Source of the DNA: a virus
IMG/VR virus record: IMGVR_UViG_3300010391_000021
Span: 6,119-70,118 of that record
Direction: 5' to 3' (one strand)
DNA length: 64,000 nt
In this document: positions 5,919 through 20,739 of the stretch, one piece after another
Numbering within the stretch: position 1 is the stretch's first letter
Layout: each line of letters begins with the position of its first letter
Translations under genes and position numbers: made by a program
The notes under the pieces: generated by a model
Databases searched by the model: none
The model's input: only the letters and a program-made list of their open reading frames with translations
Told to the model about the DNA's origin: nothing

Positions 5919-6574
5919 TGACGCCAAAACGTTTAATCGCGTGTATCTCGTGCCATTCGTATGTTTATCCTAAACACGATCAAGGCGGGGCGCATCACAA
6001 CGGCCCAAACGAATCCCGGTCAAAGGCAATTAGAGAAACTTGGTTTCGAACGTGGAAACTGAAGTATAGCGATCAGATCGATTTGAAGTTTTTTCTCGGT
6101 CGGTCGGCAAGCGTTCCTCGCGAAGATGAAGTTTTTTTAGATTGCGCGGACGATTACTACAGTCTTCCCCGCAAAGTTCAAAAAATGTTTGAATGGGCGG
6201 CAGAGCGCGACTACGATCAAGTAGCTAAGATTGATGATGATGTTTGGCTGTGGGTAGATCGCCTACTAAGCAATTTAGACAACACGGACTATAAAGGATT
6301 CGTTCTTGAATCCGCAGATGGGAAATACACAAGCGGTACGGCGTATTGGTTGAGCAACAAAGCGATGAAGATTATCGCGGCGGCTCCTTGGAACCCTACC
6401 GATTGGGCGGAGGATAAATGGGTCGGAAAAGTTCTTGCAGAACACGGCATCTTTCCCGTTCACGATGAGCGGTTTCAATGCTGCCATTGTAAGCAATGCA
6501 AAATCCGGTATCCCGAATCGGACAGGATTTCAACTCACACCGTTGATCCAAAAGAAATGTATGTCCGCGTATGA
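5918..6574 (+). CDS. GT31-like (galactosyltransferase-type) glycosyltransferase
   Basis: AIRETW, DDYYSLPRK, KIDDD, SGTAYWLS and EDKWVG motifs. Confidence 0.75.
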   Translation: MTPKRLIACISCHSYVYPKHDQGGAHHNGPNESRSKAIRETWFRTWKLKYSDQIDLKFFLGRSASVPREDEVFLDCADDYYSLPRKVQKMFEWAAERDYDQVAKIDDDVWLWVDRLLSNLDNTDYKGFVLESADGKYTSGTAYWLSNKAMKIIAAAPWNPTDWAEDKWVGKVLAEHGIFPVHDERFQCCHCKQCKIRYPESDRISTHTVDPKEMYVRV

Positions 6575-16755: not shown

Positions 16756-17625
16756 ATGCCTGAAGAAATTGTTCCAGCACCAGAAGTTGCGGTAGTTCCT
16801 GAACCGCCTAAAGAATTTCGATACGAATACCAGCCAAAGGATGAAAGCGGAAATCCGTTAGGCAATAAACAGGTCGTGATCGCGACTACGCCAGAAGAGG
16901 CGGTAGAAAAAATCGCGCAAATGCACCAAGAAGCGATCAAGTTTATTCGTAAACAGAGTCGCGACCTCCGTCTTGGAGTGGTGTTCAACGATGAAATCCC
17001 ACAAGACGCCCCTCGTGTCAAGGCAGGGCAGTACGAGATTGAACCCATTCCTTTGACCGCAGAAGAAAGATTAGAAGTAACTCAGAACATCAACGATCCA
17101 GAGAATTTTGAGAAAGCTGCGCGGCTGATTGTTCGAAGTCAGATTGGTGATCCAGACGCCGTTCGCGCAGTAGTTGGAGATCAGAAACGCAGAATCGCGG
17201 CGATTGACGCCCGCGAACAAGCAGAAGCTTTCGTCCGGTCAACTCCTGATTATTTTGTATGCCCGCAGAATTTTGAAACTATCGCCAACTGGATGATTAA
17301 AAATGATCTTGAGCCGGTTAAGGCAAACTTCAAACTTGCTTTCGAGGGTCTCAAAGAGTATTTGGTTTCGCGTCCGGTTGTGGAGCCTGTTGTTCCTGCT
17401 CCAGTTCCAACACCTGTTGCAGCGCCGGTTGCAGAAACGCCTGCTGCGGTTGCTTCTGAATCGAAACGTCCCGTATCATCGGGACTGACCCGCGAGAATT
17501 CTTCGGACAGCGGCCCCGTATCCAAAAAAGGATACACCCCCGCCGAGATCGATAAGATGTCGGCAGATGAATACAAGCAGAAGGTTTTAGTGCCGGAATT
17601 CAGAGCGAGTCGGCAGAAGGCGTAA
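16756..17625 (+). CDS. Capsid scaffolding protein
   Basis: Acidic helical protein with a Pro/Ala linker and C-terminal IDKMSADEYK, upstream of the MCP; GGAG RBS. Confidence 0.7.
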   Translation: MPEEIVPAPEVAVVPEPPKEFRYEYQPKDESGNPLGNKQVVIATTPEEAVEKIAQMHQEAIKFIRKQSRDLRLGVVFNDEIPQDAPRVKAGQYEIEPIPLTAEERLEVTQNINDPENFEKAARLIVRSQIGDPDAVRAVVGDQKRRIAAIDAREQAEAFVRSTPDYFVCPQNFETIANWMIKNDLEPVKANFKLAFEGLKEYLVSRPVVEPVVPAPVPTPVAAPVAETPAAVASESKRPVSSGLTRENSSDSGPVSKKGYTPAEIDKMSADEYKQKVLVPEFRASRQKA

Positions 17626-18029
17626 TGATTCGGCGGTACGAATCTCGCGACTTCGAAGATGTTGACTTCTTGCAACGTGATTTCTATCTTCGCCCCGCAA
17701 CTCAAGAAGAATTGCGGGGCAAGTTAGAAAACCCCTCGTGGGTAGCGGACGAAGATGGTGTTATTGGCTGCTTGATAACTTGTCCAGATGCGGACAAAAC
17801 TCTGATCTGGAGTGTAATCGTTGCCCGCCCCTGTCGCGGGAAAGGAATCGGCTCGGCGTTATTAGAAGCGGCAGAATCGTTCTATTATGGAACTAAATTG
17901 ACGCTCTATGTAGAACCAACCAATCCTGCCAAGAGTCTGTATGAGAAACGCGGATATCGAGCCGCGCAACTAATAAAAGGATTTTACGGCAAAGGGTATG
18001 ACGCCGTAGAGATGTACAAAATTTGCTAA
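17625..18029 (+). CDS. GNAT (RimI-like) acetyltransferase
   Basis: RGKGIGSALL and NPAKSLYEKRGY motifs. Confidence 0.88.
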   Translation: MIRRYESRDFEDVDFLQRDFYLRPATQEELRGKLENPSWVADEDGVIGCLITCPDADKTLIWSVIVARPCRGKGIGSALLEAAESFYYGTKLTLYVEPTNPAKSLYEKRGYRAAQLIKGFYGKGYDAVEMYKIC

Positions 18030-18176: not shown

Positions 18177-20739
18177 ATGGCTTTTTCACCGGCTAAATGG
18201 TAAGCTGGCCGGATTAAATCTTGCCAAATCGGTGAACATCTGGTATAATTAATACTAGACAATACCGAGGAAACCTTATGAACAATACAAACAAATGGTC
18301 GTATCTGGCCGGAGTATTCGATGGAGAGGGGTCTGTAGGAATTGCGATTCATAAACTCAATTCTTCAACCCATCTTGTTATTTCTCTTTCAAGCACCAAT
18401 ATCGAACTGATGGAATGGTGCATAAAACATTTTGGGGGTGTCTACTATACGCAAAGTCGGGGAACTCACCGAATTGAATATAAATGGATGCCAAAAGGAA
18501 AGAAAAACCGAGAAGTTTTTTTTCTCGGAATTCTTCCATATCTCATCATTAAGAGAAAACAAGTTTTATTGGCCTTGGAATATGATAGGCTAGGTTCTCA
18601 CAATCCCGAAGCACGAACAAAAATGCGAGAACAGATGCTCTCTTTCAACAAGGGTTCTGTAGAGACTAATACGCAAGACGCGGCTCCCGCCGTGATGATC
18701 GAGTCCGAACTCATTGGGGACAATGAGAGTGCACCGGATGTGAATCCGGGTTTTGATTGGGCCGCTTTGCAGCGACTCAGACAAATTTAGCCTAAACACC
18801 GTTAGGCAATAACCAGTCAAATCTGCCTCAGTCTACTGTGCGCTATTATGACAAAAAGTTCCGCGAGAACTTGAAGGCACAGACCCCCTTCGTCGCTTGC
18901 TCCGAACGTTTGGACCTACCGATGAAGAGTGGCAACCAGTATAACATGTATTTGTACGTTCCTCTGGCCGCGAATACTTCGCAGACCACGGAAGGTACTG
19001 TAGGTAGTTCCGTTTCGGTTAGCGTTCTGAATACTTCGGCCACGATTGGCGAATACGCAGACTACGCCAACTTCTCTTCGCTGTCCCTCGCAACTGCGAT
19101 TGACAACACCGTAGAGAACGTTGCCCGCGAAATGGCGTATCGTCTGGGTGAATCTCTGTCCGCTCTCGTCCGCGCAACTGCTGACGGCGCGAATACGGTT
19201 GACTCAAGCGTTCGCACTTTGCTATCCGCGACAAGCACCACGAGTTTCACAACTCTGTCGCTGACCTACATCCGTAACGCCGTCCAGAGTTTGGCCGGTC
19301 GTTCGGTTCGCCCGTTCGATGAGGCTTCCAAAGCGTATGCTGGCGTTATCCATTTCTAAAAGGGTGGATATAAAACTTGACTAAATCGGTGGACATCTAT
19401 ATAATATAGACAATACCGAGGTAAGGTCCAATGTTTCAAATAGACAAGACAAAATGCTCGTATCTGGGCGGCTTGGTTGATGGTGAGGGCAATATTTGCA
19501 TCTGGCGTACCGAATCCCGTGCGCATGATTATAAAGTCTCTGGAAAGACCTATGGGTCCTTCAATTTGAGGCTGCATATTGCAAACACCAGCTTAACACT
19601 CATGAAATGGTTAGTCTCGAATTTTGGCGGTGTTTATCACTGCAAAAGAGAAGCCACAGATAAGCATGCAACTGCTTATGAATGGCGTCCAAAAGGCGAG
19701 GGAAACACAAAACGTACTCTTCTGGCGATTTTGCCTTATCTCGTGATTAAACGAGAGCAAGCAATTCTGGCACTCAAATATATTGATCTGCCACAACAAG
19801 CGCCCAAAGAACGTGAACTAATCTACCAACGCATGAGACAGCTAAACCAAAAAGGACCCAAAACCGTAACGACTAATACGTCAAGCCCTGATGAAAGTCA
19901 GGTGAAGATAGAGTCTGATCTCATAGGCGACTATGAGTGTGACCCTGCGGTGACGCAGGACTCCTAAACAAAAATACCTTTCGCCCTTGGCGATGTGCTG
20001 GCAGACAACAGCAACGACAGCCCTATCGACATTTTGAAGCGCACCCCGCAAGGTTATGCTCGTTTGGATGAAATTATCTCAACCGACCTAACCGAAGTCA
20101 TCAACTTCCCGACTTCCGGCGTAAGTTTCTTCCAGTCGAACCTCGTAACCACGACTGCCAATTATAATGACGGAACGCACGGCGCTGTTACTGGCCTGAC
20201 CGCGCTTCGGACTTATATCTTCGGCAGAGATGGCATCTACAGCATCAACCTTGGTGCTCAGGGTGACACGGGCTTTGGCGACGGCGAATGGCGCAATATT
20301 CGCTGCAATATCGTTCAGAACGCTGAACCGAGCGTCGCTGATCCTAGCGGGCTGATCCCAGGTTGGACTTCGTATCGTGTACATTTTACGACCTCGCTTG
20401 GGCCAGACACCACAATTCGTATGAGACAGCTAGATGCCGCCAGCGCAATAAGTTAATTGTTTTCAGCCAATTACAACTGAATACATTTTACTATTACGCA
20501 CGGAAACCTAATGCGAATTTAAAACTTGACCTGATTGACTTGAAACCTGAAATGGCAACAAGGCGGAACCCGAAAGGGACCGTGAGAGACTAAGCGGTCG
20601 AGCGCCGAAAGGTGATGCGATAGTCCGAACATACGGGAACAAAACCGTATGAGGTTGGCAGAAATGACCAATCTCAACAGCGTAAGTTGTTGATAACAGG
20701 GCGATTAGGGAAATCGACGCAGCCAGCGCAATTTCGTAA
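18177..20739 (+). CDS. Major capsid protein (N4-gp56-like), spliced: join(18177..18194,18805..19353,19977..20420,20704..20739), 348 aa
   Basis: The exons join in frame: MAFSPA|GNNQSNLPQ...YAGVIH|PFALGDVL...DTTIR|IREIDAASAIS; IGEYADY and IHP motifs; follows the scaffold. Confidence 0.85.
18221..18249 (+). promoter_or_regulatory. sigma70-type promoter inside the intron 1 core
   Basis: TTGCCA-17nt-TATAAT, then GAGG and the ATG at 18278. Confidence 0.75.
18278..18790 (+). CDS. Single-motif LAGLIDADG homing endonuclease (intron 1)
   Basis: WSYLAGVFDGEGSV, FGG and ILPYLIIKRKQ motifs. Confidence 0.92.
   Translation: MNNTNKWSYLAGVFDGEGSVGIAIHKLNSSTHLVISLSSTNIELMEWCIKHFGGVYYTQSRGTHRIEYKWMPKGKKNREVFFLGILPYLIIKRKQVLLALEYDRLGSHNPEARTKMREQMLSFNKGSVETNTQDAAPAVMIESELIGDNESAPDVNPGFDWAALQRLRQI
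19377..19405 (+). promoter_or_regulatory. sigma70-type promoter inside the intron 2 core
   Basis: TTGACT-17nt-TATAAT, then GAGG/AAGG and the ATG at 19431. Confidence 0.78.
19431..19967 (+). CDS. Single-motif LAGLIDADG homing endonuclease (intron 2)
   Basis: SYLGGLVDGEGNI, NFGG and ILPYLVIKREQA motifs. Confidence 0.92.
   Translation: MFQIDKTKCSYLGGLVDGEGNICIWRTESRAHDYKVSGKTYGSFNLRLHIANTSLTLMKWLVSNFGGVYHCKREATDKHATAYEWRPKGEGNTKRTLLAILPYLVIKREQAILALKYIDLPQQAPKERELIYQRMRQLNQKGPKTVTTNTSSPDESQVKIESDLIGDYECDPAVTQDS
20421..20703 (+). mobile_element. Group I intron 3 in the MCP (283 nt, no endonuclease), with a copy of the last exon in its P1 loop
   Basis: P1 aattcgU/Gcgaatt (20513-20519); P10 cctaat/attagg; P3 cttgacc/ggtcgag; P7 GACTA/TAGTC; P9 catacgg/ccgtatg; terminal G20703. 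Confidence 0.88.

Follow-up and report, generated by a model that had tools for sequence, protein, structure and literature searches.

The 64,000-nucleotide stretch of viral DNA analysed here (hereafter the window; positions 6,119 to 70,118 of the IMG/VR record IMGVR_UViG_3300010391_000021) contains, at 18177-20456, the gene for the major head (capsid) protein of a tailed phage, a relative of the Tunturiibacter phage Tunturi_3. This gene is split by two inserts, and an open reading frame (ORF) with a LAGLIDADG motif lies in each. The last base of both inserts is A and not omega-G, the near-universal ending of group I introns. We consider that they are probably two mobile group I introns that end with A at omega and are spliced by the ordinary two-step pathway. 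All coordinates below are those of the window, and all features lie on its + strand.

Two inserts in the capsid gene end in A

The boundaries of the inserts were set by comparison with alleles that lack them. The protein encoded by exon 2 is 83% identical to the annotated Tunturi_3 major head protein and has 256 relatives in IMG/VR, 80 of which, in viral contigs with 79-96% identity, were fetched for comparison. Junctions were compared in a set of 81 loci, and the exon 2 match reaches the junction of site 2 in 79 of these. At site 2, exon 2 runs into exon 3 without an insert in 75 of the 81 loci. Among the 79 loci matched up to the junction, the continuous alleles all read (I/T)H|PF, with P and F invariant, so that a splice must join the CAT that ends at 19353 to the CCT that starts at 19977.

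We also placed contigs from four public DNA runs (X1-X4) on the region, where they show alleles of it. In the X3 contig, from a near-identical phage, 19352 is joined to 19980 with CCCC between them, which is the intron-less allele ATC CAC CCC TTC. In the X4 contig, also from a near-identical phage, 18195 is joined to 18806, the intron-less allele at site 1. At that site the three closest relatives (L001-L003) read ATGGC.TTTTC.CCGGCT|GGCAATAACC, that is, MAFSPA|GNNQSNLP. The reading of these relatives and the X4 joint delimit the first insert to 18195-18804 (610 nucleotides), and the continuous loci and the X3 joint delimit the second to 19354-19976 (623 nucleotides). The bases that flank each junction differ, so the boundaries cannot slide and a shift by a single base fails; both inserts therefore end in A. 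When junctions were refined by exon homology, the best junction of intron 2 was unique, with T at -1 and A at omega (score 194 versus 186), and the same combination was the unique best junction in L082 and L088.

A first-pass annotation, made from the letters of the window alone, had proposed that both introns end in CCTAAACA-N4-TA. This pattern has exactly two matches in the window, at 18791-18804 and 19963-19976, and none elsewhere; the chance expectation is 0.06, and two matches were reached in one of 100 shuffles. The same annotation had placed the splice of intron 2 after A19976 from the reading frame, the IH|P motif and the P10 pairing aaagg/ccttt, a placement with which the continuous alleles agree, and its remark that the final 17 nucleotides of this intron (19960-19976) have no G is confirmed. 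At intron 1 it had favoured A18804 over the in-frame G18801 because of P10 and the shared spacing, and the intron-less alleles point to the same base. The X2 and X3 contigs also read A, not G, at 18804.

Predicted group I core and structural definition of omega

At gathering thresholds, Rfam has no match in the window. Below an E-value of 1, the whole window has two matches, both to Intron_gpI (RF00028) and both over the inserts (25.6 bits and E 6.5e-4 for intron 2; 20.4 bits and E 0.024, in a 2-kb search, for intron 1). On the strength of these sub-threshold matches and of covariation in P3, P7, P9, P9.0 and P9.1, we assign both inserts to the group I introns.

Exon homology gives the end of an insert and not the behaviour of a ribozyme, so a structural definition of omega was sought. 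Eight introns with the tail motif in the first 80 loci, a scan of viral contigs with the P9 consensus and the motif (54 loci) and the window itself together gave a family set of 43 distinct 3' domains. On the 43 aligned sequences, P9, P9.1 and a P9.0 of two base pairs are 95.5% paired, versus 30-49% when the partner is slid, and their covariation score was reached by none of 500 shuffles. P9.0 is formed by the last two bases of J7/9 and the two bases directly preceding the last intron base. It occurs as AA/UU, AU/AU, UG/CA, UA/UA, AC/GU, GU/AC and UU/AA, with AU 25, UA 6, GC 1 and UG 1 at one of its pairs and AU 19, UA 15, CG 1 and GC 1 at the other. The P9.0 pairings of the window (A18708-A18709 with U18802-U18803; A19918-U19919 with A19974-U19975) thus identify A18804 and A19976 as omega, on structural grounds and by homology alike.

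The two P3 strands are fully complementary in 26 of the 29 introns that yielded both of them, with ten sequence versions represented. P7 covaries as well, at two positions: GAGACU occurs with AGUCC or AGCCC, ACGACU with AGUCU and, in L111, GAUU with AAUC. As judged from sequence, the G-C pair of the guanosine site, beside the bulged P7 base, is kept in all 40 family members listed (40/40). The two window introns have it in canonical form, G18664-C18705 and G19871-C19915, as the first-pass annotation had noted. P1 and P4-P5 were recovered by folding. At both 5' splice sites the U at -1 is paired with a G in P1, and T is found at -1 in 26 of 26 family junctions entered, the contexts of which were chosen by hand.

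Omega state across the intron family

The LAGLIDADG intron family occupies at least ten capsid gene sites in related phages (L027, L040, L043, L049, L065, L082-L135), and some loci have several introns in one capsid gene. By our reading, the sites include MAF|SPA, SPA|GNN, KA|QTPF, NQY|EMF, YEM|FMY, TIG|EYA, GEY|ADY, GV|IHPF, IH|PF, KH|TP and KHT|P. At a fixed spacing, the last base among the 43 members is G in 21, A in 14, T in four and C in four. The tail is five to seven nucleotides long in the family. When this length is allowed to vary and omega is called by P9.0 and exon homology, 13 of the 43 have A and 27 have G (21 supported by P9.0 and six without that support). Three members (L094, L100 and L103) received no call. 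The last base of L100 (tail CTGTTC) and L103 (tail CTTGTTC) would be C by the P9.0 spacing, and both loci are cut before the 5' exon.

The 13 omega-A members are both window introns, L040, L043, L049, two introns in L065, L082, L088, L089, L098, L119 and L130, and they are spread over eight insertion sites. L082 and L088, at the same site as intron 2, also end in UA. A second scan, run without the tail motif, returned more A and G members; L156 and L157, both with A, are examples.

Omega-A and omega-G members do not differ in their P7 strands. A maximum-likelihood tree of the endonucleases was built from the 33 ORFs with 160 residues or more, the other 10 being shorter or cut. On this tree the omega state needs four changes, at least two of them forced by well-supported branches; L027, with G, is sister to L043 and L049, with A (support 100/99). 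Given G or A on the same core and repeated changes between them, omega-A is real and recurrent but defines no subclass. The earlier suggestion that omega-A marks an undescribed intron subclass of its own is thus abandoned, as the same core goes with omega-G in about 60% and with omega-A in about 30% of the members. The family tolerates either G or A at omega, with no matching change in the core.

LAGLIDADG open reading frames

The ORF of intron 1 (18278-18790, 170 amino acids) reads through P7, P8, P9 and P9.1, and that of intron 2 (19431-19967, 178 amino acids) has as its stop the UAA within CCUAAACA. Each is a predicted single-motif LAGLIDADG homing endonuclease, with the motif YLAGVFDGEG in the first and YLGGLVDGEG in the second, placed in the P6 loop and continuing through the 3' half of the ribozyme. 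This arrangement is general in the family: the ORFs run through the P7, P3', P8, P9 and P9.1 of their own ribozyme, and the UAA inside the CCUAAACA tail motif is the stop in 33 of the 43 members. The nuclease domain proper ends near residue 130.

The Pfam family LAGLIDADG_1 matches the two ORFs with 20.4 and 21.4 bits, below its cut-off of 23.1 (E 0.001 for the ORF of intron 1), and I-MsoI and I-CreI match residues 5-129 of the intron 2 ORF (E 3.5e-4 to 0.2). PHROG 5046 matches both (E 2e-16 for intron 1, 18278-18787; E 9e-21 for intron 2, 19431-19964). The label of this PHROG is 'HNH endonuclease', which looks wrong in view of the LAGLIDADG motifs and the I-MsoI and I-CreI matches.

Proposed splicing pathway and alternative explanations

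In the two-step pathway that we favour, an external guanosine in the P7 pocket would attack after U18194 and U19353, and the freed 5' exon would then attack the bond after A18804 and A19976. With A being a poorer fit for the guanosine pocket, positioning of the 3' splice site would depend mostly on P9.0 and P10. In intron 2, P10 has five base pairs (aaagg 19359-19363 with ccttt 19977-19981). The CCT at the start of the 3' exon that this pairing needs is present in three of three intron-bearing alleles versus four of 76 intron-less contexts at IH|PF (Fisher p 4e-4, relatedness not corrected), and the CAU|CCU of the window corresponds to CAC CCC in the near-identical intron-less X3 allele. With A at omega there may also be less hydrolysis at the 3' splice site and less circularisation of the intron, which would favour a high yield of ligated capsid messenger RNA; this benefit has been proposed for ND5-717, a mitochondrial intron of hexacorals (PMC8146996).

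Several points weigh against this pathway. Splicing and the exact ligation junctions are deduced here from DNA; a search for sequencing runs that contain this DNA listed no RNA run. Both RF00028 scores are far below the gathering score of 50. A19976 is covered by the X1 contig only, and X1 is possibly the window's own source. An A at omega strongly impairs exon ligation in model ribozymes, as is known from the Tetrahymena literature. The P10 of intron 1 is short, with three base pairs including one G.U pair, and in-frame G alternatives exist at both introns: G18801 would add one Leu, and G19983, with T19354, would turn PFA into S.

P10 was also compared between the omega-A and omega-G introns of the family. 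P10 is 2-9 base pairs long in omega-A introns (median 5, n=12) and 0-8 base pairs long in omega-G introns (median 1, n=11), a weak difference (one-sided Mann-Whitney p 0.035, kinship not corrected) that we treat as a hint only because the introns are related and the junction contexts were chosen by hand. Three more omega-G introns gave no P1 and were dropped from this comparison, and L040a has a P10 of two base pairs. The automatic refinement of junctions found no flanking match in 13 of the 43 members (short exon 1 or cut loci), gave no candidate for L122 and left some ties; the junctions of W1, L027a, L040a and L043a were set by hand.

If a nearby G were really omega, the capsid protein would read MAFSPA-L-GNNQ with G18801 and GVIH-S-LGDV with G19983 and T19354, slightly unlike its relatives. 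This is very unlikely, even though the two alternatives keep the reading frame, group I introns as a rule have omega-G and a family tail of five to seven nucleotides leaves the spacing some freedom. An extra residue after SPA is found in none of 81 relatives, and the P-F at IH|PF is lost in none of the continuous alleles. The P9.0 partners precede A18804 and A19976 and not those Gs, P10 fits the A sites only, and in near-identical phages the intron-less alleles agree with the A boundaries at every base; ten more family members, at other sites, give the same picture. The first-pass annotation had gone further in stating that a frameshift or a stop results from the nearby Gs. This is true with the 5' splice site after T19353 but not with T19354, from which G19983 is in frame (IH-S-LGD); the product would lack P and F, which never vary among the continuous alleles, and this G is without P9.0 or P10 support. 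It is more improbable still that the A ends are an artefact or a sign of decay, whether through a faulty assembly or because the introns are dead and the phage is defective and no longer expresses its capsid gene. The window is indeed a metagenome assembly, and A19976 is without independent read support. However, A18804 is found in contigs of two other studies, the exons are in frame with 79-96% identity to relatives, and the ORFs are intact. Omega-A recurs in the 13 members and eight insertion sites described above with a covarying P9.0, and at the very site of intron 2 the UA end is shared by L082 and L088.

Two further explanations accept the A ends and concern the second step. In one, omega-A introns need a protein for that step, either their own LAGLIDADG protein acting as a maturase or an RNA chaperone of the host or phage. 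A is generally held to be a poor ligand for a G-C guanosine pocket, both window introns keep intact LAGLIDADG ORFs, and LAGLIDADG maturases are reportedly known in organelles. We nevertheless think this unlikely: L098 and L119 are omega-A members with ORF remnants only (truncated to 21 and 70 codons), so that the intron's own protein is no general requirement, and the ORFs resemble homodimeric nucleases of the I-CreI and I-MsoI type. In the other, the 3' splice site is set by a structural ruler, composed of the A-rich CC(U/C/A)AAACA element, a spacer of about three nucleotides, the two-base-pair P9.0 and P10, rather than by a terminal G that docks in the P7 pocket. This is conceivable, and we hold it as a tentative possibility rather than as the expected outcome. 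If it were true, ligation would be largely indifferent to omega, A and G could interchange freely, and L100 and L103 may have C. The family would then offer a natural group I ribozyme whose second step is relaxed or altered, and selection might favour a non-G end for suppressing hydrolysis at the 3' site and intron circularisation in a transcript from which hundreds of capsid subunits must be made for each virion.

The G at the end of group I introns is among the most conserved bases of any ribozyme, because it must occupy the guanosine pocket for exon ligation. This family consists of closely related mobile introns with G or A on the same core, in an essential and very highly expressed phage gene. 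Sister pairs, such as L027 with G and L043/L049 with A, are matched natural pairs, which bear on the strictness of the pocket, on compensation by P9.0 and P10, and on a non-G end as an adaptation against side reactions. For annotation, the consequence is that tools that seek U...G ends will misplace exon boundaries in such phage genes.

Structure of the exons and introns

The capsid gene starts with the ATG at 18177. Exon 1 (18177-18194) encodes MAFSPA, the same N-terminus that in L001-L003 is continuous into GNNQSNLP, and ends with T18194, which provides the U for the U.G pair at the intron 1 5' splice site. Exon 2 (18805-19353, GNNQSNLP...AGVIH) is defined by homology to the Tunturi_3 head protein and the 80 viral contigs. 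Exon 3 (19977-20456, PFALGDV...) is an open frame with its stop at 20454-20456. All exons are in frame.

In intron 1 (18195-18804), P1 lies at 18189-18212, where ccggct (18189-18194) and ggccgg (18207-18212) form six base pairs including T18194.G18207; the minimum free energy (MFE) fold recovers this helix. The P10 guide is gct (18204-18206). The core consists of P3 (18219-18224/18673-18678), P4 (18229-18234/18263-18268), P5 (18239-18246/18252-18259), P7 (18662-18667/18702-18706, with A18663 bulged beside the G18664-C18705 pair) and P8 (18680-18683/18687-18690). The 3' domain (18708-18749), defined by the alignment, the pair counts and the fold, has the P9.0 5' strand A18708,A18709, followed by P9 (18710-18715/18722-18727) and P9.1 (18734-18739/18744-18749, with a GUGA loop). 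The 3' tail (18791-18804) is made of CCUAAACA, CCG, the UU of P9.0 (18802-18803) and omega A18804. Two features were seen in this intron only. Its MFE fold shows a possible hairpin of GCCUAA (18790-18795) and UUAGGC (18802-18807) that spans the 3' splice site and would compete with P9.0 and P10. There is also an extra hairpin at about 18752-18785 that is missing from other family members.

Intron 2 (19354-19976) is organised in the same way. Its P1 (19347-19370) pairs ttatccat with gtggataa in seven base pairs, including T19353.G19364, according to both the Rfam alignment and the fold. P3 (19376-19381/19880-19885), P4 (19386-19391/19414-19419), P5 (19396-19401/19405-19410), P6 (19425-19429/19854-19858), P7 (19869-19874/19912-19916, with C19870 bulged and the pair G19871-C19915) and P8 (19887-19891/19898-19902) make up the core. 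The 3' domain (19918-19959), supported as in intron 1, has the P9.0 5' strand A19918,U19919, P9 (19920-19925/19932-19937) and P9.1 (19944-19949/19954-19959, again with a GUGA loop), and the tail (19963-19976) is made of CCUAAACA, AAA, the AU of P9.0 (19974-19975) and omega A19976.

The CCUAAACA motif differs at its third base among family members (CCCAAACA, CCAAAACA). A pairing partner for it was sought by eye, including through a possible likeness to the CCUAAG half of a tetraloop receptor, and no conserved partner was found.

A small downstream element and the neighbouring gene

The 3' end of the capsid gene contains a further repeated structure (20418-20739). After ACA ATT CGT, which ends at 20420, the frame continues as MRQLDAASAIS-stop, and a second copy of the C-terminus, IREIDAASAIS-stop, is found about 283 nucleotides later at 20704-20739. 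Between the two copies there are group I-like R and S elements (gagacuaag...gauagucc). Predicted splicing of U20420 to G20703 would give TTIR|IREIDAASAIS, identical to L001, in which case exon 3 would end at 20420; unspliced RNA would also give a full-length protein, of equal length. The X3 and X4 contigs match the window no further than 20417 and then run on into this C-terminal coding sequence, apparently without the insert. A search of 20421-20703 against Rfam returned no match, even at an E-value of 10. A core of about 140 nucleotides (20531-20673) of this element, which has no ORF, recurs with 72-93% identity in many fetched loci, often several times per locus; copies are found in L155 (three), L104 (three), L027 (5789-5941) and L043 (4929-5073 and 5186-5341). 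The element resembles another family of small, intron-like sequences within these capsid genes.

The capsid gene is immediately preceded by an ORF of 134 amino acids (17625-18029), in the same position as a Tunturi_3 gene annotated as 'acetyltransferase'. The order portal ... acetyltransferase - head protein is common to the window and Tunturi_3.

Comparison with known systems

Rfam RF00028 represents an IA/IB-type core with R and S elements, and the window introns align with it at the J8/7-P7 S element GAAGAUAGAGUC, the P7 5' strand GACUAA, P1, P3-P6 and P9. They differ from its consensus in that no P2 is seen, in the family-specific CC(U/C/A)AAACA tail element and in a variable omega. A literature search returned no report of omega-A phage introns or of an omega-polymorphic family; the Greek-letter form was unsearchable and supplementary files were not covered. 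In the main text of the Tunturi virus paper (PMC11924767), none of the terms 'intron', 'LAGLIDADG' and 'homing endonuclease' appears.

The mitochondrial ND5-717 intron of hexacorals (sea anemones, corals and mushroom corals) is likewise a group I intron with A as its last base in an essential protein gene. It ligates its exons precisely in vivo (PMC6545197, PMC8146996). ND5-717 is obligatory and vertically inherited, is without a homing endonuclease, holds giant P8 inserts with whole genes and is back-spliced in some lineages. The phage introns, in contrast, are small, mobile and LAGLIDADG-encoding, with omega-A and omega-G members in one family, and the comparison between the two is one of features.

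The 23S ribosomal RNA intron Cbu.L1917 of Coxiella burnetii, a self-splicing group I intron, is said to have A at omega and to splice in vitro. The title of Raghavan et al. 2007 (J Bacteriol 189:6572), cited in PMC5423948 and PMC11270868, describes it as lacking the canonical omegaG. Compared by that title only, Cbu.L1917 is a single element in a bacterial ribosomal RNA gene, whereas the introns described here form a polymorphic family in a phage protein gene. The statement of the first-pass annotation that omega-A is known only in rare cases such as coral ND5 introns thus has its precedent in ND5-717 but is too narrow, since the Coxiella intron extends it, by title, beyond corals.

Mobile group I introns with homing endonucleases in major capsid genes are likewise described for the mycobacteriophage LittleE and the lactococcal phage Tuc2009. 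Capsid introns of this type are spliced efficiently late in infection, and the LittleE intron ends in G after U and has its HNH gene on the opposite strand (PMC3706429). Unlike these, the family described here has LAGLIDADG genes that run through the ribozyme core, many sites per gene and, often, an A at its end.

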